In this document: positions 4,329 to 47,155 of the stretch, one piece after another
How the letters are laid out: every line of letters starts with the position of its first letter
How positions within the stretch are numbered: position 1 is the stretch's first letter
DNA from: an uncultured Nitrososphaerales archaeon
Lineage (GTDB): Archaea; Thermoproteota; Nitrososphaeria; Nitrososphaerales; Nitrososphaeraceae
NCBI GenBank assembly: GCA_963695855.1
Contig: CAVOHZ010000010.1
Coordinates: 576,001 to 640,000 of the forward strand
DNA: 64,000 bases
Direction: 5' to 3'
Position numbers and translations under genes: made by a program
The notes under the pieces: generated by a model
Seen by the model: only the letters and a program-made list of their open reading frames with translations
What the model was told of the DNA's origin: nothing
Database searches by the model: none

Positions 4329-4528
4329 TTAATTAAATATGATAATAACTACATTTAAACGAAAAAAATAAACACATGATATCTTATTTTATAGACATTC
4401 CGTGCTAAATATCGTCCAAAAGAGATAGTATCAAACGATAATAAAAGTAGTATATATTTTCGTAATCTAAGATGGAATGGAAAAAGGGTATTTCGTACAT
4501 GTACGTATGGACTTTTATATTATCTTAA

Positions 4529-5509
4529 TCAAATAGTTTTAGATATTCTTACCCTTGCAATTCCGTTTAAAATCGATACATAGCTAACCCTGTCTCCTTT
4601 AATACTATTAGGTAGAGTAAATGTTTGAAAAATTGGAGGATCTGACGAAGAAAAAATTTTTAGAAGTCTATAATTTTGATCATATGTAGCAGATATTTCT
4701 GAATTTACTAGGGGACCCTTAACTTCTACCAATATTTCATAAAAATCATCTCCCTCGAGAATATCCGGTCGGTAATTGTCATTGGAAAAAGTTCTAGTTT
4801 GTAACCTTTTTGAAAAGTTAATTGGAGCTCGAAAACTCTGTCCCTGAAAAAAAGAAGGCAACATGATTTTAATAAGAAAACTAGTTCCTGCGCCGGCTAG
4901 AAAGCCACCGATATGCGCAAAGTATGCTACGCCTCCCAATGGATCTATAAAGTTAAAAATCACCTGAAGAATAAACCAAAATGGAATATAAGCTAGAGCA
5001 GGAATCCTCACAGTTGTGATAATAAAAGCAGTTATTATTGTGTAAATTTTAGCTTTAGGAAACAGCACAAGATATGCTCCCATTACACCAGAAATCGCAC
5101 CTGATGCACCCACAGAAGGTATTTCACCCGATCCCACAGAGACGGCGAAAAAGCTATGTACCAAACCTGCAACAATACCACATAACAAATAAAAAAAGAA
5201 ATATTTGACGTGTCCAAATCTATCTTCTATATTGTCACCAAAAATAAATAAGAAAACCATGTTTCCTATAATATGTGCTATACCCCCATGAAGAAACATT
5301 GAAGTTACTAAAGAGATAACATCTCCATTTAAAACAGAATTGGGAACTGCGCCAAAATTCAAGAAAAGTTCAGCTACCTGATATGAGTTAGAGAAAAAGT
5401 TAGTCGTTATCACTTCCCAGATAAAAATAATTATGTTTATAGCAATCAGGATATAATTTACAAATGGTCTACCATGAAGACGTTGATTATCGTCATGAAT
5501 AGGAAACAT
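4529..5509 (-). CDS. rhomboid intramembrane serine protease with C-terminal Hsp20-like extension
   Basis: FLHGG..H..GNM, catalytic GASGA and AHIGG; soluble C-terminal ~80 aa. Confidence 0.92.
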   Translation of the reverse strand: MFPIHDDNQRLHGRPFVNYILIAINIIIFIWEVITTNFFSNSYQVAELFLNFGAVPNSVLNGDVISLVTSMFLHGGIAHIIGNMVFLFIFGDNIEDRFGHVKYFFFYLLCGIVAGLVHSFFAVSVGSGEIPSVGASGAISGVMGAYLVLFPKAKIYTIITAFIITTVRIPALAYIPFWFILQVIFNFIDPLGGVAYFAHIGGFLAGAGTSFLIKIMLPSFFQGQSFRAPINFSKRLQTRTFSNDNYRPDILEGDDFYEILVEVKGPLVNSEISATYDQNYRLLKIFSSSDPPIFQTFTLPNSIKGDRVSYVSILNGIARVRISKTI

Positions 5510-5534
5510 CTATTAATTAATCACTACTTTTCTT

Positions 5535-5717
5535 TCAAACTTGGAAAGGATTACTGCTCGGCATGAAATCATCCTTTCCTCCATGAGCCTTTTTATTGTG
5601 TCTAGAAAGATGTTCTTTATCCTGAAAGAAAATATTACATTGTTTACACTTAAATTTATCATTAGATTTTATAGATTTATCTTCCTTTTTTCTACGTAAG
5701 AAATTAGATAACCCCAT
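5535..5717 (-). CDS. small C2H2 zinc-finger protein
   Basis: FKCKQCNIFFQDKEHLSRHNKKAH. Confidence 0.8.
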   Translation of the reverse strand: MGLSNFLRRKKEDKSIKSNDKFKCKQCNIFFQDKEHLSRHNKKAHGGKDDFMPSSNPFQV

Positions 5718-5806
5718 ATCATTATTAAGATAATAAACTATTTTTAAATTATTCCAATACCTGAGTTAGAATAGATAAATAAATTAAAATTTATTAATGA
5801 TTACTA

Positions 5807-6037
5807 TTACTCCATCACAATCATTGTTAAAGTAGACTTTACTCCTGTCAATTTCCTTAATTTCCATGTTATTATTTCTTTCACTTTATCCATAGTATCG
5901 GATTCTACTTTTGCTATAATATCATAAACTCCATATACTTGAAAAACTTCATTTACACCTTCAAGACTTTTTAAATCCCGTACTATAGCATCCTCACTGC
6001 CTAACTCAGTGTTTAGTAAAACAAAGGCACTTGGCAT
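5807..6037 (-). CDS. stand-alone Lrp/AsnC ligand-binding (RAM) domain protein
   Basis: AFVLLNTELG...VYGVYDIIAKVE...STLTMIV; likely start ATG 6037. Confidence 0.9.
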   Translation of the reverse strand: MPSAFVLLNTELGSEDAIVRDLKSLEGVNEVFQVYGVYDIIAKVESDTMDKVKEIITWKLRKLTGVKSTLTMIVME

Positions 6038-6085
6038 ATTAGTTCTTACTAAAATGATATATAAAAACATGATGAAATGGAAGGA

Positions 6086-6892
6086 TTATGTTTCTAACAA
6101 TTTTTTCTCATCAAAAGGACCTGCTATTTCCCATTGATAATTGAAAAAATCTTCACACCATTCATGGAAATCACTGTCTTTACTATAAAACATGATATTC
6201 AGATCGGGTTCTCCCTTTAGAGTCGGAAATAATAAACATGCTTCTTTTTCATTAAAAATTGTCATTATTCTCACCTTCGCAAGCATCTTTCTTTCTACCA
6301 ATCCTTTTGAAATCATACTATGCCAACCTATTTTTTCAAGAATTTCAGTCCTTCCTTGGGGGATTACAGTATCTTTTGAAAGGATATATGAGAATTTGAT
6401 TCCCGTTCGAATCTTATTGCTTACAGGTTCAATTAAATCAAGTGGAACTTGAGACATTATTTCCTTTATGTAAACTTCAGAATTAGAATACAATTTCTTC
6501 CAGTGCTGCAAATTTGCCATTACTCCCAAAACAATTTCACATTTTTTTAATGATCCTATTCTTTGAATGAATTTTAACGGCAACTCTTCGATCGAATGTT
6601 CCAAGAAATACTGTTTATGTGCTGAAAGAAATTCATATGCAGGTAAAATATATACGATAGATTTTCCATATGAAGTCAAACAGAGGTCACCTTCGCTATC
6701 TTTGAATACCAATCCAGAATCAATTAGCCTGGTAACATTTCGATGAGCTTCTTGCATAGTGGCATTCAATTCGTTAGCAAGCTGTGATAATCTGTATTTA
6801 TTTTTCGAAAGCTTCAGAATCATCGATAGTCTTAAATCGCCAGCTAGTTCAAAAAATAAAGATTCTGTATTTTCAGGAAAATTGTCACTCAT
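6086..6892 (-). CDS. ArsR-like HTH transcriptional regulator (DUF1724-type C-terminus)
   Basis: N-terminal wHTH; C-terminal FHEWCEDFFNYQW. Confidence 0.8.
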   Translation of the reverse strand: MSDNFPENTESLFFELAGDLRLSMILKLSKNKYRLSQLANELNATMQEAHRNVTRLIDSGLVFKDSEGDLCLTSYGKSIVYILPAYEFLSAHKQYFLEHSIEELPLKFIQRIGSLKKCEIVLGVMANLQHWKKLYSNSEVYIKEIMSQVPLDLIEPVSNKIRTGIKFSYILSKDTVIPQGRTEILEKIGWHSMISKGLVERKMLAKVRIMTIFNEKEACLLFPTLKGEPDLNIMFYSKDSDFHEWCEDFFNYQWEIAGPFDEKKLLET

Positions 6893-6983
6893 ATTAAATG
6901 CAGTACAATATTATTTGTTTCAAAGATTTAAACTTGAATAATTTTATTTCAAATGAAAAAATTAATAGATAAAATAAATAGGA

Positions 6984-8300
6984 TTATGGACTAATCCTAG
7001 ACATCGTCCTTGGAAAAGGAACAGTATCCTTGATATCCGGGATATTGAGTATCCACCTAATTAACCGTTCTATACCAATTCCAAATCCACCATGTGGGAT
7101 TGAACCAAATCGTCTCAAATCCATATACCATTCATAATCAGTAGAATCCAATCCTTCAGAATGTATTTCTCTAATTAATTTCTCAAGATTATCTTCTCGT
7201 ATTCCACCACTAGATATTTCACCGAATCCGTAGGGGGCCAATAGATCGACAGCAAGTCCTACACCAGCACTTGTGGGATCTTCTTTCACGTAGAAAGGTT
7301 TGATTTTTAAAGGATAATGTGTTATAAAAATTGGAGTAATAGAATCTTCGGTAAGGGTTCTTTCTGATTCGATATTAAGATCATCACCAAATTCTATCAT
7401 TCTGGAAACATCATTGTCTATAATATGATAATCCTTTTTTTGTAATGATTCGATAGCTTTTTCATACATCATTTTCTTGAAAGGTATACATATTTTTTCC
7501 AGTGAGGAGATATCTCTTTTCAAGAAATCGAATTCATGGCTTCTGGCCTTAATCGTATTCTCTATAATAAATAAGACAAGCTTTTCTTGAATTTTCATTA
7601 AATCCTCTAATGTAACCCATGGAGCTTCTGCCTCTAAATGCAGAAATTCGGCTAGATGCCTAACAGTTCTAGATCTTTCTGCTCTAAAAGAAGGAGTTAG
7701 TGACCAAATAGGTCCCAATGAAAAAATCATTGCTTCGAGGTATAATTGAGCACTTTGAGAAAGAAATGCATAATCATCAAAATATTTTAATTTAAAAAGA
7801 GTAGATCCTCCTTCCACTGATCCCTTTACCAACACAGGGGCACTTACTTCATACCAATCATTATGAATAAACCAGTCTCGAGCATATCGTAGAATCGAAG
7901 AACGAACTTTCGACATCATTATCATTTTTCTTGTCCTAATTGTGAGATGTCTGTATTCTAAAAGCAGATCAGGGCTAGTATATTCACCCAGAGGATAGTC
8001 TGGTTTAGAAAGGCTATACACATAAATTGTAGTTCCCTTAATTTCGTATCCTCCCTCTGGGGCTCTACTATCTTTGTGCACGACTCCCTTGATCTCTAGT
8101 GAAGATTCAATTGTTAAATTATTAGTTTTGGATGAAGGAAAGATGCTTTGAATGACTCCCCCTCTGTCATCACGTAACAACAAAAAAGAATTTTCTTTCT
8201 GTTTTCTTATTCTATGAATCCACCCTCTAAGAGAAACTTCTTTTCCCACATAATAATCACTTTTAACATCAGATGTTCGCAGATACAATTCAATAAACAA
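6984..8300 (-). CDS. asnS: asparagine--tRNA ligase
   Basis: OB-fold RGWIHRIR; LSQSAQLYLE; motif 2 FRAERSRTVRHLAEF; PHGGFGIGIER; closer to AsnRS than AspRS. Confidence 0.85.
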   Translation of the reverse strand: MFIELYLRTSDVKSDYYVGKEVSLRGWIHRIRKQKENSFLLLRDDRGGVIQSIFPSSKTNNLTIESSLEIKGVVHKDSRAPEGGYEIKGTTIYVYSLSKPDYPLGEYTSPDLLLEYRHLTIRTRKMIMMSKVRSSILRYARDWFIHNDWYEVSAPVLVKGSVEGGSTLFKLKYFDDYAFLSQSAQLYLEAMIFSLGPIWSLTPSFRAERSRTVRHLAEFLHLEAEAPWVTLEDLMKIQEKLVLFIIENTIKARSHEFDFLKRDISSLEKICIPFKKMMYEKAIESLQKKDYHIIDNDVSRMIEFGDDLNIESERTLTEDSITPIFITHYPLKIKPFYVKEDPTSAGVGLAVDLLAPYGFGEISSGGIREDNLEKLIREIHSEGLDSTDYEWYMDLRRFGSIPHGGFGIGIERLIRWILNIPDIKDTVPFPRTMSRISP

Positions 8301-39292: not shown

Positions 39293-39757
39293 ATGGAAAA
39301 GGTTAGTGATGAAGTAGTAATAAGGGAATTAGAGGAAAGTCACCTTGGAAAAGATTTCCTAGACACTCTTTCAAATTTGGGAGATATTAAAAAATTAAGA
39401 AACGATCAAAAACATATGTTAAAAATTTTTAAAAATATAAAAGAAAAATCAAGTTCAAGAATTTTTGTAGCTTTAATCGATAATAAAATAGTAGGTGCAA
39501 TTACGACAATTATTGAATACAAGTTTATTCATAATGGGGGAAAAGTCTGCCACATTGAAGATGTTGTGACAAGAAAAGGATATGAAAAATTAGGTATTGG
39601 GTCTAGTCTTATCAGAAAGGCAATAGATTTGTCCACCAAAGAAGATTGTTATAAGGTAGTACTAAATTGCTCCGAGAAAAATATCCTATTTTATGAAAAA
39701 AATGGATTTCATAAATATGAGATCGAAATGAGATTTGATATCAACAAGAAAAATTAA
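39293..39757 (+). CDS. GNAT acetyltransferase, glucosamine-6-phosphate N-acetyltransferase (GNA1)-like
   Basis: IEYKFIHNGGKVCHIEDVV, CYKVVLNC, FYEKNGF. Confidence 0.88.
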   Translation: MEKVSDEVVIRELEESHLGKDFLDTLSNLGDIKKLRNDQKHMLKIFKNIKEKSSSRIFVALIDNKIVGAITTIIEYKFIHNGGKVCHIEDVVTRKGYEKLGIGSSLIRKAIDLSTKEDCYKVVLNCSEKNILFYEKNGFHKYEIEMRFDINKKN

Positions 39758-40567
39758 TTGTTGGTTTTTTTTAATTAAACTAGAGGTTGAAATAACTAAA
39801 AGGATAACATTTTTGTTTATAATTTATCATATACTGAGATTAGAAATTTTAATAAATCATCGTATCCAAGATACCCCATTTGAGAATTTCCAAAGATATA
39901 TCTTTCCAATTTTGCTGTATGCATATTGTACCAATTGGCTAGAAGATAATTACTTTTATTTTTGTGATTCTTTAATTTACTAATAATAACAATATACAAG
40001 TTGTTACACATAATTCTAAAAGTAATTTGTTCAAATTAAAACATCCTATTTCTGAACTATGTAGATTCCCCTGTTTATAGACACATTGACAAATAGTATT
40101 GTATTCATAGAACATATCAAATTCAATATAATCATACGTTATAAATTGAATAGATAAAAATCAAAAAAACACCATATAACAAACTACTTTTTGATTAATT
40201 TAATAAGTCTAATCAAGAAATTAATGAATGAAGAATTTTGTCCTTAAAAGAACAAATGGTATTTCTTTTAAAATAGTGTGAATTAATAAAATTGGAAGGT
40301 TATGAGTTTTCTTGATTTTAGTTTCTATTATGAGGAACAGGTTCTTTTAAGAGCTGCAACTGTTTCTTCTTTGACAAAAATATCGTATGCTGTTTCGATT
40401 TCAAAAAGGTATAAACATATTTTTCATTGAATCTATATAAACAAATTGCAGAAGGTATATTAATAAAATTATTTTTTGGTACTTACACCAATACTGACTA
40501 TTTCAAGCAAAATATCAGACTACTGAGGAAGTAATATTAATACGTCCTTTGTTTATTTTTTTATAAT

Positions 40568-41359
40568 ATGTCAAATACACCTATCATGGTTTTTGATTCT
40601 GGAATAGGTTCTATGTCTATAATCAAGGAACTAAGAAAGGAACTACCAAATGAAAATATATTATATTTCGCAGATAGGGCAAATTTTCCATACGGAAACA
40701 AGTCACATAAAAGACTTTTAGAAATTATGAAGAATACTATTAAATACCTGGAGAGATTCAAACCAAAGATAATAATAATAGCTTCCAATACGCCTTCGCT
40801 TCAGATTTTAGATGAAATTAAAGATAAAGTTAATGTTCCTTTACTAGGTGTGAGGCCTCCTCTAAGAGAATCAGTAAAGCTAACGAAAAATAATCACATC
40901 GGAATAATGGCAACAGAATCAGCTATCAATAGTAAGGAGATAGATAAACAAATAAACGATGAAATTCCTCAAAAGATATTTGTTAATAAGTATAACGCAT
41001 CGCCGTTAATAGCCTTGATTGAAAATGGAGATTTTATCAAAAGCAGAAAGAAGATCAGAAACCAAATTCATAGAATTCTAGGGAACATTGAAGATATAGA
41101 TGTCATAACATTATCAAGTACTCATCTTCCTTTCATCGTGGATCAATTATCTGAAGAGTTTCCATCTGTTAAATTTATCGATTCCGCAAAAACGACAGCA
41201 AAAAATGTAAAACAAATTTTGACAGACAACGGATTACGTAACAAAAATAACACTGGAAGGATAAGAATTCTTGTATCGGATGGAAAAGATGAATTTCAGG
41301 AAATGTTAAGATATTTGGGCGTAAAGGAAAATGTACAAGAAGTTTTTTGGTCAATTTAG
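40568..41359 (+). CDS. murI: glutamate racemase homolog with Ser replacing both catalytic Cys
   Basis: FDSGIGS, FPYG, ASNT (canonical ACNT), SSTH (canonical GCTH). Confidence 0.85.
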   Translation: MSNTPIMVFDSGIGSMSIIKELRKELPNENILYFADRANFPYGNKSHKRLLEIMKNTIKYLERFKPKIIIIASNTPSLQILDEIKDKVNVPLLGVRPPLRESVKLTKNNHIGIMATESAINSKEIDKQINDEIPQKIFVNKYNASPLIALIENGDFIKSRKKIRNQIHRILGNIEDIDVITLSSTHLPFIVDQLSEEFPSVKFIDSAKTTAKNVKQILTDNGLRNKNNTGRIRILVSDGKDEFQEMLRYLGVKENVQEVFWSI

Positions 41360-41429: not shown

Positions 41430-43550
41430 ATGATTAGGAAAATAAGACTGGGCATAGACGTTGGAGGAACTTTTACTAAAGCTGTTGCTATTGATATTTT
41501 AACGGGAGAGTTATTGGGTAAAATGACAGTTCCCACTACACATAATGCTGATAAGGGGGTAGCCGAAGGTATAGTACTAGCACTTAAAAATTTAATGGAA
41601 ACGTATAGCGTACAAAGATCTGAAATAGAATTAATTTCACATAGTACTACTCAGGCAGTTAATGCGCTTCTTGAAGGAGACACTGCAAAAGTTGGGATTA
41701 TTGGGATGGGAGTAGGACTAGAAAAGTCTAACGTTGTCAAGAGGACCAATATAAAAAATATTGAATTATCTTCAAATAAATATCTACATACATGTTTTAG
41801 ATTTTTAGATACATCAAAATATTTGCAAAAACAGGAAGTTCAAGAAACAATATCATCGCTAAAAGACGAAGGTGCGGAGGTTTTGGTAGTCAGTGAAGCG
41901 TATGGTGTGGATGATCCAAGCAACGAACAATACGTGATGTCATATTCGGATCTTCCTATAACTGGAGGTCATGAGCTTACTGGAATTTATGGTCTTGAGA
42001 TTAGAACTTTGACTGCTGCAATAAATGCAGGTATAATGCCAAAGTCAATAAGTACGGCTAGATATGTTGAGTCTGCTGTAAGGAACGAGAATATAATTTG
42101 TCCTATAATGATAATGAAGGGGGACGGCGGAGTGACAGACATCGAAACTTTTAAAAACAAACCTATTTTGACAATACTATCAGGACCTGCGGCAAGTGTG
42201 GCGGGAGCGTTATTACATTCTCATATTTTGCAGGGATTATTCATTGAAGTTGGAGGAACCTCAACTAATATCTCTATTATAAAAAATGGCAAACCTGAAA
42301 TTCGGTATGTTACCATAATGGATCATCCGACTTGTATTCGTTCAGTGGATGTCAGAGTTGCAGGAGTGGCAGGAGGTTCATTAATAAGAATTTCAGGCAA
42401 AAAAATTATTGATGTAGGTCCTAGGTCAGCTCATATTGCTGGCTTGAAGTATTCCTGTTTTGTCGATCCCACAGAACTTGATAACTCAAGGTTAATAACT
42501 TTTAGACCTAGTGAAAATGATCCGGATAACTATATTTGTATAGAAACAGAGTCAAAAAAATTGATAGCAATAACCAATACCTGTGCAGCAAATGCTCTAG
42601 GATTGATAAAGGAAGGAGATTATGCATCAGGAAATAAAGAGGCAGCTAAAATAGCACTAAACCTCTTGGCAGAAAGAATAGGAGTTAGTAACTATAAGGA
42701 AGCTGCAGAAATAGTATTAGGTTTTTCTATTAAAAAAATTCTACGAATAATTGAACCGATGATTAGAGAATATCAGATAGAAACAGATCAGATGTTCCTA
42801 ATCGGGGGAGGCGGAGGAGCCTCTGCGTTGGTACCGTATATGGCAAATAAGCTAGAATATCAGTTCGAATTAGCTCAAAATGCAGAGGTAATATCATCTA
42901 TAGGAGTGGCTGCAGCAATAATATATGAGGAAATAGAAAAAACCATAAGCCAACCAAAACCTGAAGACGTTTCATTATTAATTGACGAAATTAAAAAAAG
43001 AACCCTCGAAAGAGGAGCGGCACCAGAATCAATTTCAATCCAAACTGAATATATCAATGAGCGTTCATTATTAAGAGGAATAGCATCAGGAAACGTTGAG
43101 TTAGATATCGGAAAAAATAACAAAAGAGAACTGAATTTTGCAGAAGTAGAGAATATTGCAATAAAAGTTCTAGGAAGTAACAAAGTGAAACAAATCCTCA
43201 ATATGAAAAATTATTATGGATTTACCTGCGAAATAATAAAAAAGAATTTTTTTGTCAAAGTAAGGAGAACCCCGATTGTAATATTAGATAAACTAGGCAG
43301 AATAAGATTAATGCTAGAAAATGCAGAAATAATTAATGGAACGAGAGATTTAAAAACCAATATAGAATCATTAGTATATGAATATAGTAACAAAAATAAA
43401 GATGACCTGGCCCCACAAATCCATATTTTGGATGATGTAAAGATCATTGATTTTTCAAGTTTAAGCTCTCCAGAACATCTAATCGAAGCCATAAAAAAAG
43501 AATTCGATAAATTAACTGTCGAAGCCGTAACTATCATTATAAAAAAATAG
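41430..43550 (+). CDS. hydantoinase/oxoprolinase A-family protein
   Basis: GIDVGGTFT, HSTT...NAL, SGPAASVAG, EVGGTST, GGGGG. Confidence 0.9.
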   Translation: MIRKIRLGIDVGGTFTKAVAIDILTGELLGKMTVPTTHNADKGVAEGIVLALKNLMETYSVQRSEIELISHSTTQAVNALLEGDTAKVGIIGMGVGLEKSNVVKRTNIKNIELSSNKYLHTCFRFLDTSKYLQKQEVQETISSLKDEGAEVLVVSEAYGVDDPSNEQYVMSYSDLPITGGHELTGIYGLEIRTLTAAINAGIMPKSISTARYVESAVRNENIICPIMIMKGDGGVTDIETFKNKPILTILSGPAASVAGALLHSHILQGLFIEVGGTSTNISIIKNGKPEIRYVTIMDHPTCIRSVDVRVAGVAGGSLIRISGKKIIDVGPRSAHIAGLKYSCFVDPTELDNSRLITFRPSENDPDNYICIETESKKLIAITNTCAANALGLIKEGDYASGNKEAAKIALNLLAERIGVSNYKEAAEIVLGFSIKKILRIIEPMIREYQIETDQMFLIGGGGGASALVPYMANKLEYQFELAQNAEVISSIGVAAAIIYEEIEKTISQPKPEDVSLLIDEIKKRTLERGAAPESISIQTEYINERSLLRGIASGNVELDIGKNNKRELNFAEVENIAIKVLGSNKVKQILNMKNYYGFTCEIIKKNFFVKVRRTPIVILDKLGRIRLMLENAEIINGTRDLKTNIESLVYEYSNKNKDDLAPQIHILDDVKIIDFSSLSSPEHLIEAIKKEFDKLTVEAVTIIIKK

Positions 43551-45185: not shown

Positions 45186-45908
45186 GGTCCTGTTAAGTTA
45201 ACACTATTTCACCTCCAATTTTGAATACAAGTTCATTTCTATTTTTTGCGTTGTATAGATAAACGAATAGTTTGATCCAATTGTATACATGTGATAGATC
45301 ACAATTATTCCTACTCTTTTGGTTTATACAAGGATAATAATCATCAAAACATTCTGACCTGTCTTTAAAGTATTGCATCACTCTTTCAATCAGACTTCTC
45401 TCTAAAGGAGAATGCAGTCTATGTTTTAGATGCAAAAAAGTACAGGCTTGTGGGTACCATGTACCTCCATCAGTGTAAACTGTATGTCTACCATATTTGG
45501 ATACAAGAGATTGGATAAAATTCTCTGCTACAAACATGTTTCTCTCTTCTGAGATGTAGATCCCAAGCACAGATCTGTGAACAGGTTCAATACAGATCCA
45601 CAACCAGAAATGTTGATTACCAATCTGAATTATAGTTTCATCTATGATGAATGCTGATACTCTTTTTCTCTTGTAAATCTGTAATGAACCAAATCGTTGA
45701 ATCCATTCCCAGACTGCAACATGACTTCTTTTCTCATCTCTAAAGATTACTAATGCTTTAGATGTATTCCGTAGACTCAAACCAAGAAAGTACAAATACA
45801 AAGAATACATTACTATACATGTAGATGTTCTATTTCTGACAAATCTCAATAACATATGTCAGAATAGAACACTCGCAGCTAAAGCTCTATCGTTAACTTA
45901 ACAGCACC
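45186..45908 (-). mobile_element. IS6-family insertion sequence (723 bp), apparently intact
   Basis: 17-bp TIRs GGTCCTGTTAAGTTAAC / GGTGCTGTTAAGTTAAC (16/17); 8-bp TSD GTTAATTC at 45178-45185 and 45909-45916. Confidence 0.95.
45193..45855 (-). CDS. IS6-family DDE transposase
   Basis: [36 protein letters not shown]. Confidence 0.92.
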
Positions 45909-46238: not shown

Positions 46239-47155
46239 GAGCCTATCCCAAAAATAGATAGGAATATAGCTTGTTGGTTTCTTATCATATATGATAATGT
46301 TTGAGTAAGAATAAAAAGTATATTAGAACAATTACATGTATTCCAGATGATCTTTGGAATGAAATTACAAATATTTTACCGGATGAGAAACCAGACAATA
46401 CAATAGGTCGTCCAATTGTTCCATATAGAAAAGTATTTGATGGCATCATGTTTATCCTGAGGACTGGATGTCAGTGGAAAATGTTACCCAAAGAATATGG
46501 TTCAGGTTCAACATGTCATAGAAGATTTCAGGAATGGAGAGAATCAGGAATATTCGATATACTATGGAGTAGATTGCTAAAAATATACGATAACAAGAGA
46601 GGAATCAAATGTACATTGCAATCACTTGATAGCATATCCGTAAAATCACCTTTAGGGGGGCGATGACTGGACATAATCCTACTGACAGAAGTAAATTAGG
46701 CACCAAAAGACATATTTTAACGGATAAGCATGGTATTCCACTATCTGCTCTTATAACATCTGCAAATACTCACGATGTTACTACTGTTGCAATTGATACA
46801 GTTGACACCATGGTTATCAAAAAACAGTTTTCAAAATCAACAACAAAATACAGTAACAAGAACAAGAAGAAGAAACAAAATCTATGCCTTGATAAAGCAT
46901 ATCATTCCAAAGAAGTAGAACAAGAAATTGTCAAGAGAGGATATATTCCACATATACGACACAGAAGAGAAGAAAAGATATTTTGTAGAAAACATCCATT
47001 AAGATGATGGGTTGTAGAGAGAACAAATTCATGGCACAATAGATTCAGGAAATTATTTACAAGATATGAAAAGAAGGAAGAGGAGAACTATCTGGGTCTT
47101 GTAAAATTAGCAAGTAGCATAATTGTTTACAGGAGGATAATTTTTAGATAGGCTC
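46239..47155 (+). mobile_element. IS5-family (IS427/IS1031-like) element (917 bp), two-ORF transposase inactivated by a nonsense codon
   Basis: Inverted ends GAGCCTATC...GATAGGCTC flanked by TA; orfA 46301-46666 (LRTGCQWKMLP), orfB from 46663 (GTKRH, LDKAY); TGA 47005-47007 precedes in-frame WVVERTNSWHNRFRKL. Confidence 0.92.

Follow-up and report, generated by a model that had tools for sequence, protein, structure and literature searches.

Serine at both catalytic cysteine positions in a glutamate racemase-like protein of ammonia-oxidising archaea

The window analysed here is a stretch of 64,000 nucleotides from an uncultured Nitrososphaerales archaeon (assembly GCA_963695855.1, contig CAVOHZ010000010.1, positions 576,001 to 640,000 of the forward strand), and the present account concerns one of its genes, an open reading frame (ORF) at 40568-41359 on the + strand whose product resembles the glutamate racemase MurI and carries serine at both positions where MurI has its catalytic cysteines. 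The frame is intact, with an ATG start and 263 codons, and the protein contains no cysteine at all. A preliminary description, made from the DNA letters alone, had stated that the MurI-type motifs are kept and that Ser73 (TCC at 40784) and Ser184 (AGT at 41117) occupy the catalytic positions; translation, codons and alignments bear this out. Proteins with serine at both sites are called Ser/Ser below, and those with the canonical residues Cys/Cys.

The gene and its two serine sites

The features of the gene are as follows.

40568..41359, + strand: MurI-family coding sequence of the Ser/Ser clade, 263 amino acids (aa), stop codon included (ORF and translation, PF01177, TIGR00067, fold)
40595..40600, + strand: Asp10-Ser11 of the FDSGIG loop, Asp10 being the retained helper of residue 73 (conservation)
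40688..40696, + strand: Pro41-Tyr42-Gly43 (PYG), substrate-loop motif (121/121, conserved in all classes)
40784..40786, + strand: Ser73 codon TCC, site of the first catalytic Cys of MurI (alignment to 1zuw, 2jfu, 2gzm)
41021..41023, + strand: Glu152, retained acidic residue of the MurI active site (E in 97-100% per class)
41117..41119, + strand: Ser184 codon AGT, site of the second catalytic Cys of MurI (alignment to 1zuw, 2jfu, 2gzm)
41120..41125, + strand: Thr185-His186, His186 being the retained helper of residue 184 (121/121 close homologs)

The protein falls within the Asp/Glu/hydantoin racemase superfamily PF01177, matched over residues 53-212 with 50.5 bits against a gathering score of 31, and passes the glutamate racemase equivalog model TIGR00067 of NCBIfam (EC 5.1.1.3) with 162.2 bits, above the curated cut-off of 146.65. 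It fails the narrower equivalog models NF002035 (138.8 bits against 328) and NF002034 (105.2 against 408), and stays below the cut-off of the aspartate racemase model TIGR00035 (36.7 bits against 93.1). Glutamate racemases make up 23 of the best 24 phmmer matches among the sequences of solved structures in the PDB (top E-value 3e-31), a search of the ESM Atlas returns 'putative glutamate racemase' clusters exclusively, and every database source names the exact orthologs 'glutamate racemase'. An AlphaFold model built with 143 aligned sequences as input (predicted local distance difference test 96.6, predicted template-modelling score 0.92) adopts the two-domain MurI fold, with template-modelling (TM) scores of 0.85-0.92 to 2dwu, 2jfo, 2gzm, 1zuw and 3isv in Foldseek, and at least 30 glutamate racemase chains match it at TM 0.74-0.92. 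The likeness to the MurI/RacE proteins (1zuw, 2dwu, 2gzm, 2jfo) extends from the fold to the length, the DSG/PYG/NT/TH motifs, the helpers D10, E152 and H186 and most ligand-contacting residues. The differences lie in the serines at both catalytic cysteines, in ten class-specific positions, in a separate branch with support of 99-100, in a host without a detectable peptidoglycan pathway (a weak negative, as explained below) and in the bacterial Ser/Ser copies being extra ones beside a real MurI.

Catalysis by MurI relies on Cys73 and Cys184 (Lactobacillus MurI numbering) as its acid/base pair. HMMER alignments to 1zuw, 2jfu and 2gzm place 'iiiaSntp' of the window's protein under 'lviaCnta' and 'itlsSthlp' under 'lilgCthyp', and the FDSGIG, PYG, NT and TH motifs are retained. 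The signature of the clade, DSG-x-G-S, (A/G)-S-x-x-P and S-T-H-L, is present as FDSGIGS, ASNTP and SSTHL. A set of 121 close homologs, consisting of the best 120 of 643 database homologs and the window's protein and spanning 53-97% identity, has Ser at positions 73 and 184 without exception; D10, S11, P41-Y42-G43, T75, T185 and H186 are equally invariant. The Cys/Cys state among close orthologs, which would have spoken for a strain-specific change, was encountered in none of the orthologs examined. The description of the protein as cysteine-free holds for the 263-aa product itself and fails as a trait of the clade, since 79 of the close homologs have no cysteine, 38 have one and four have two. 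In two orthologs of the genus g18 (L107 and L108) residue 183, directly before Ser184, is a cysteine (L-C-S-T-H), a position otherwise mostly occupied by Ser, Ala or Gly in the clade.

A class comparison (alignment A3) sets 42 archaeal-type and 12 bacterial-type Ser/Ser rows beside 88 Cys/Cys rows, all 88 of which have C at both catalytic columns. D10, D36, E152, T185 and H186 are 97-100% conserved in every class, D10 reaching 100% in all three, and P41, Y42 and G43 are kept throughout; H186 is also invariant across the 143-sequence alignment. Asp10 is taken here, from the MurI literature, to assist residue 73. The residues that we take to contact glutamate in published MurI complexes (S11, Y42/G43, N74, T75, T116, T119 and T185) are all present in the window's protein except T119, which is replaced by A; S11 is found in 100% of both archaeal-type Ser/Ser and Cys/Cys rows, and N74, T75 and T116 persist in the archaeal type. 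About ten changes characterise the Ser/Ser rows, in which they are conserved, and are rare among the Cys/Cys rows: G15S, V66P, C73S, A76P, G98P, T119 to A/V/L, P145S, G183S, C184S and Y187L. Five changed positions flank the catalytic residues directly or sit in the DSGxGG loop. On this alignment, the active site is remodelled at about ten positions, beyond a point mutation of two.

The Ser/Ser clade, its distribution and selection

When 1.84 billion cluster representatives were searched exhaustively with HMMER, 12,204 matches were obtained at E-values up to 0.001. The best 150 of these together with the window's protein comprise 92 Cys/Cys sequences, 49 Ser/Ser, one Cys/Ser hybrid and nine fragments or misaligned short rows (Ser or gap). 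A maximum-likelihood tree was computed from 138 full-length rows (quick search, LG+G4), with support given solely by the Shimodaira-Hasegawa-like approximate likelihood ratio test (SH-aLRT). All 47 full-length Ser/Ser rows, the window's protein included, lie on one side of a branch with support of 100 and the 91 Cys-type rows lie opposite; the support is 99 after masking of the ten class-specific columns. An old and distinct Ser/Ser subfamily of the MurI fold forms part of the joint explanation set out below and is proposed as tentatively as that explanation. The hybrid, P0247, is the single Cys73/Ser184 sequence ('ACNTAT ... LASTHYV') and is placed among canonical Cys/Cys rows; judged by this placement, it is an independent half-change.

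The distribution in archaea follows ammonia oxidation. Within the window's genus, a search of 24 genomes detected the gene in 23. For the order as a whole, a sample of 200 genomes at least 85% complete was drawn from sixteen families, four with the gene (f1, f4, f9 and f13) and twelve without. It is present in 48/49, 7/7, 10/10 and 47/49 genomes of f1, f4, f9 and f13, respectively (112/115), and went undetected in the remaining twelve (0/85 genomes). In the same 200 genomes the ammonia monooxygenase subunit AmoA (PF12942) occurs in 47/49 (f1), 7/7 (f4), 10/10 (f9) and 49/49 (f13) and in 0/85 elsewhere. Because these genomes are kin, the match between the two genes represents one shared history and not many independent events. 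Archaeal genomes carry one copy, the sole one detected with this query. All five f13 loci that were read are Ser/Ser, and the source names in this family are Nitrosopumilus, Nitrosotenuis and Nitrosotalea. The organism names that sources attach to exact orthologs include Nitrososphaera viennensis EN76, N. gargensis Ga9.2, N. evergladensis, Nitrosocosmicus franklandus, Nitrosotenuis cloacae, Nitrosopumilus sp. K4, Nitrosotalea devaniterrae and a Nitrosomirales metagenome-assembled genome (MAG). The Ser/Ser gene is a core gene of ammonia-oxidising archaea and, as it tracks AmoA by family, it belongs to the small set of their core genes to which no function is assigned. Carriers exist in culture (Nitrososphaera viennensis EN76, Nitrososphaera gargensis), which makes the function directly testable.

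The Ser/Ser form extends beyond archaea to a large bacterial branch and to anammox-type proteins. A representative at 46% identity branches next to the subgroup of the window's protein, and the members of its cluster are named Brocadiaceae and Planctomycetes MAGs. The bacterial branch, with 13 representative clusters, shows the additional changes S11 to A, T75 to A/V and T116 to V. In a scan that sampled each species by a single genome, 253 loci belonging to this branch were confirmed; the best 80 are distributed over Mammaliicoccus, Staphylococcus, Halomonadaceae, Cupriavidus, Bradyrhizobium, Brucellaceae, Mesorhizobium, Phyllobacterium, Nocardia and others. Each of the five bacterial genomes searched encodes two MurI homologs, one Ser/Ser and one canonical with ACNT...GCTH, and the bacterial Ser/Ser protein is thus an extra paralog, presumably with its own role. 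A second copy belonging to this clade is widespread among staphylococci, halomonads, rhizobia, Cupriavidus and Nocardia.

The two serines are maintained with a constancy that can be followed at the codon level. All 36 archaeal loci of families f1, f4, f9 and f13 are Ser/Ser (35 by motif scan, L118 by alignment), as are the 79 readable loci among the 80 bacterial ones, and the pair persists down to 33% identity. Ala, Gly and Thr are never seen at either site among the 121 close homologs, 54 clade rows and 115 loci. In the motif scan, codon 73 is TCN in 35/35 archaeal loci and in 78 of 79 bacterial ones, the remaining one being AGC; codon 184 is AGY in 35/35 archaeal loci and divides into 61 AGY and 18 TCN in bacteria. 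TCY and AGY each lie one base from the Cys codon TGY, so that each original change may have been a single substitution. An exchange between TCN and AGY requires two base changes and serine is still kept, which argues that serine itself is selected, beyond the mere avoidance of Cys. Within the window's genus, pairwise ratios of nonsynonymous to synonymous substitution rates (dN/dS, Nei-Gojobori) are 0.10-0.21 in 11/11 pairs, as expected under purifying selection.

The preliminary description had proposed that the two substitutions look selected and not decayed, and had suggested an ortholog alignment with dN/dS as a check; the invariant serines, the purifying selection and the single well-supported group uphold this proposal. 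Strain-specific decay, sequencing error or a dying gene has a negligible probability, given an ORF that is intact and without stops in all 113 matching genomes of the order sample, the depth to which Ser/Ser persists, the dN/dS values and the branch support of 99-100; no point in its favour was found. A general avoidance of thiols was considered as a cause and rejected at the protein level, as the mean number of cysteines in a Ser/Ser protein is 2.2 and that of non-catalytic cysteines in Cys/Cys proteins 2.35, an equal content in both classes. The pressure is, by this comparison, specific to the two catalytic sites.

The gene family has been reported under another reading. A 'typical bacterial' glutamate racemase was described as present throughout the ammonia-oxidising archaea and all but missing from relatives that do not oxidise ammonia, and the enzyme, stated to possess the necessary catalytic sites, was proposed to make D-glutamate available as a carbon or ammonia source (PMC12363236, mSystems 2025). 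The 'GLUR' of that report denotes the gene family treated here and shares its distribution, and the counts given here agree with it; it is treated there as a typical bacterial enzyme, whereas the sequences examined here read Ser/Ser at the catalytic sites. As far as its main text goes, PMC12363236 does not mention the cysteines or serines of the glutamate racemase. The Ser/Ser finding contradicts the functional statement on these archaea as it is worded in that text. Full-text literature searches retrieved PMC12363236 as the one paper that bears on the gene (PMC13759103 does not) and no published description or characterisation of a Ser/Ser glutamate racemase homolog, so that prior characterisation of this form, which would have removed its novelty, was not encountered.

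An ordinary two-thiol glutamate racemase, as annotated and as published, would convert environmental D-Glu to L-Glu. The passing of TIGR00067 and the uniform naming of the orthologs by their sources speak for it; against it stand the absence of a thiol at either catalytic position in every archaeal ortholog examined, the five f13 loci included, and the silence of the PMC12363236 main text on the cysteines of this enzyme. We consider this explanation highly improbable. The canonical two-thiol mechanism is excluded by sequence, an exclusion that covers the mechanism and leaves aside the physiological use of D-Glu, and the usual annotation as 'glutamate racemase' probably misstates the function of the Ser/Ser protein. 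As the defining catalytic pair is absent, the inference of a D-glutamate role drawn for deep-sea ammonia-oxidising archaea in the 2025 study needs an assay.

Neighbouring genes and candidate functions

Two neighbours of the gene recur within the genus.

39293..39757, + strand: GNAT acetyltransferase, upstream, a neighbour at genus level only (PF00583)
41430..43550, + strand: hydantoinase/oxoprolinase A-type protein (ASKHA ATPase), 706 aa, downstream (PF01968, PF05378)

The order GNAT, MurI-like, hydantoinase-type is kept in the genus, where the hydantoinase-type gene is present in 13/13 loci and the GNAT gene in 12/13; the latter is not upstream in other genera. The hydantoinase-type gene also lies directly downstream on the same strand in three of the four fetched loci of genus g18 and in the single g20 locus. 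Its 706-aa product is weakly similar to caprolactamase alpha, N-methylhydantoinase and 5-oxoprolinase. An ortholog of this gene was detected in 44/49 genomes of f1, 24/49 of f13, 1/7 of f4 and 0/10 of f9, and an obligate partnership was rejected because no ortholog was found in many genomes that carry Ser/Ser. Across 25 archaeal loci the Ser/Ser gene lies beside the hydantoinase-type gene in some Nitrososphaeraceae, genes for an ESCRT-III-like protein and a uracil-DNA glycosylase in f4, f9 and one f1 genus, and corrin methylases in f13. The neighbours at the 80 bacterial loci depend on the lineage and include ATP-binding cassette exporters, LysE, MscS, thioesterase, AMP-binding enzymes, regulators and others. 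The neighbourhood was likewise rejected as a functional clue, no neighbour being conserved across the clade. On one anammox-type metagenome contig (L129), the genes at 4460-7485 (- strand), divergent from the Ser/Ser gene, encode a Haem_oxygenas_2 iron-containing redox enzyme, a protein matching the glutamate-synthase flavin mononucleotide domain and a RidA-family protein; this single example may hint at amino-acid or imino-acid metabolism.

Searches of the window's genome for possible partners are to be read with one caution. The family search with PF01177 missed the Ser/Ser protein in its own genome despite the 50.5 bits obtained by hmmscan, hence such searches can overlook diverged members and their negatives are weak. 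With this limit, no Hydantoinase_B partner and no D-glutamate cyclase were found by family search in the genome, and Mur_ligase_M had no match in it at a completeness of 99.87%.

These observations bear on the possibility that the same scaffold performs another chemistry or accepts another substrate. Ser-His(-Glu) and Ser-Asp pairs would then support a thiol-free reaction, which might be a hydrolysis, a decarboxylation, the opening or closure of a ring, or the racemisation of some more acidic compound, for example an N-acyl amino acid, a hydantoin or a lactam such as 5-oxoproline. In some lineages the protein might work jointly with the ATP-dependent protein of hydantoinase/oxoprolinase type encoded next to it. 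Within the superfamily, arylmalonate decarboxylase (Gly/Cys) has lost one catalytic Cys and changed its reaction, the remaining Cys being the proton donor; it resembles the window's protein in the loss of a catalytic Cys within the fold, with sequence likeness presumably at the superfamily level only. In the unrelated proline racemase family, a Cys-to-Thr exchange gives a dehydratase. Besides these two precedents, a remodelling that goes beyond the two serines and includes the loss of T119, the more hydrophobic pocket of the bacterial branch, the paralogy to a true MurI in 5/5 bacterial genomes, the hydantoinase_A-type gene directly downstream in the genus and in other Nitrososphaeraceae genera, and the glutamate-synthase-domain and RidA neighbours on the anammox-type contig all favour a different chemistry. 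It is opposed by the scarcity of the hydantoinase-type ortholog in f9, f4 and f13, by the lack of a Hydantoinase_B partner (the weak negative above), by neighbours that are not conserved across archaeal families or bacteria, and by the retention of most MurI glutamate-contacting residues in the archaeal type. On balance such a change of chemistry seems unlikely, if well within consideration.

The protein could also be a pseudoenzyme, a non-catalytic binder of glutamate or an analogue with a sensory function or a regulatory effect on another protein. Inhibition of DNA gyrase is a second function of some bacterial MurI proteins that does not depend on racemisation. In favour of a pseudoenzyme, neither canonical catalytic residue is left, the ligand-contacting residues are kept, no D-Glu-using pathway is evident in the genome (again from weak negatives), and serine could persist as a hydrogen-bond partner of the ligand. 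However, the acid/base helpers D10, H186 and E152 are invariant as in real MurI, a constraint that binding alone does not need, and neither site has drifted to Ala, Gly or Thr; the dN/dS values are typical of an enzyme, though compatible with a binder too. A purely binding role is accordingly rated as distinctly improbable, without being far-fetched.

The explanation we prefer, and hold tentatively as one that falls somewhat short of probable, is a functional Ser/Ser enzyme of the MurI fold whose Ser-Asp and Ser-His-Glu relays would transfer a proton at the alpha-carbon of glutamate or a closely similar compound. Two serine hydroxyls would replace the two thiols as working groups, with Asp10 backing position 73 and His186 and Glu152 backing position 184, the same helpers as in MurI. 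Binding of glutamate or a close analogue would be retained, Asp and His would serve as bases acting through the serine hydroxyls, racemisation or epimerisation at the alpha-carbon would be the most likely outcome, and the role of the enzyme would lie outside cell-wall synthesis. Both sites were swapped and then frozen, the helpers stayed frozen, the flanks were remodelled and purifying selection is strong, a combination that looks like a functional active site equipped with a new catalytic pair. It is unlike the usual pseudoenzyme and favours a catalytic protein; taking all reactions together, catalysis of some kind is probable. The data show the family and fold, the serines at both sites with their strict conservation and purifying selection, the retained helpers and most ligand-binding residues, the core status of the gene in ammonia oxidisers and its paralogy in bacteria; catalysis, reaction and substrate are inferred. 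The preliminary description had offered three options (a hydroxyl-based racemase, an enzyme for another substrate, a non-catalytic binder), which still form the right set; they are weighted here among themselves, and no single one is established.

Several points weigh against this preferred enzyme. A serine hydroxyl alone is a poor base, and the racemisation of free glutamate by such a group is expected to be slow. At position 119, the substrate-contacting Thr that 90% of Cys/Cys rows possess is missing from every Ser/Ser row, and the flanks of both sites are altered (G15S, A76P, G183S, Y187L), signs of a different substrate or geometry. Some members of the archaeal clade have Ile, Thr or Tyr in place of Asn74. 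With neither a Mur ligase nor a D-glutamate cyclase found in the genome, subject to the weakness of these negatives, no consumer of D-Glu is evident. The canonical MurI that accompanies the bacterial Ser/Ser protein in 5/5 genomes implies that the latter does not simply supply D-Glu there.

Natural and engineered systems provide a background for hydroxyl-based catalysis. The L-Asp/Glu racemase of the Escherichia coli YgeA type (PF01177) has a Thr/Cys pair in which a hydroxyl replaces one thiol and activity is kept. It is changed at one site and belongs to the aspartate-racemase branch, whereas both sites carry a hydroxyl in the window's protein, which scores well under the aspartate racemase cut-off. 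Lactobacillus MurI retains a low level of activity when a single Cys is mutated to Ser, and a serine alkoxide is an accepted base in the fumarase/aspartase superfamily.

A more specific version of the preferred enzyme would be a natural cofactor-independent racemase or epimerase that works on two serine hydroxyls, has a single origin, is core to ammonia-oxidising archaea and is shared with anammox-type bacteria; it is rather unlikely that all of these elements hold together. Ammonia-oxidising archaea and anammox-type bacteria both live with nitric oxide and related reactive nitrogen species. Should the protein be active as such, it would be the first natural two-hydroxyl version of the two-thiol racemase fold, and a serine-hydroxyl racemase would represent a new catalytic solution for carbon-acid deprotonation in the MurI fold and imply an unrecognised D-amino-acid (or related) metabolite in archaea without peptidoglycan. 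Should it have another activity, it would define a new functional branch of a drug-target family.

Further observations around the gene

At several loci from several families (L014, L015, L117, L121 and L123-L126) the Ser/Ser gene is divergent from a gene for a protein of about 215 aa that appears ESCRT-III/CdvB-like by eye and has no Pfam match. Two corrin (TP_methylase) methyltransferase genes adjoin the Ser/Ser gene at Nitrosopumilaceae-type loci.

The spacer upstream of the gene in the window (39984-40567) measures 584 bp and is AT-rich, with 24% G+C against 31% for the window. It contains no + strand ORF of 60 aa, no transfer RNA (tRNA) gene and no Rfam match, and the scans for tRNA and Rfam families around the gene likewise returned nothing. 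The extra upstream gene of the relative L016 has left no remnant in this spacer. A search of sequencing runs with the gene turned up no more than small shares in RNA runs. Further downstream, the ORFs at 45193-45855 (- strand) and 46301-47007 (+ strand) appear transposase-like by eye, the second being split into the overlapping frames 46301-46666 and 46663-47007.

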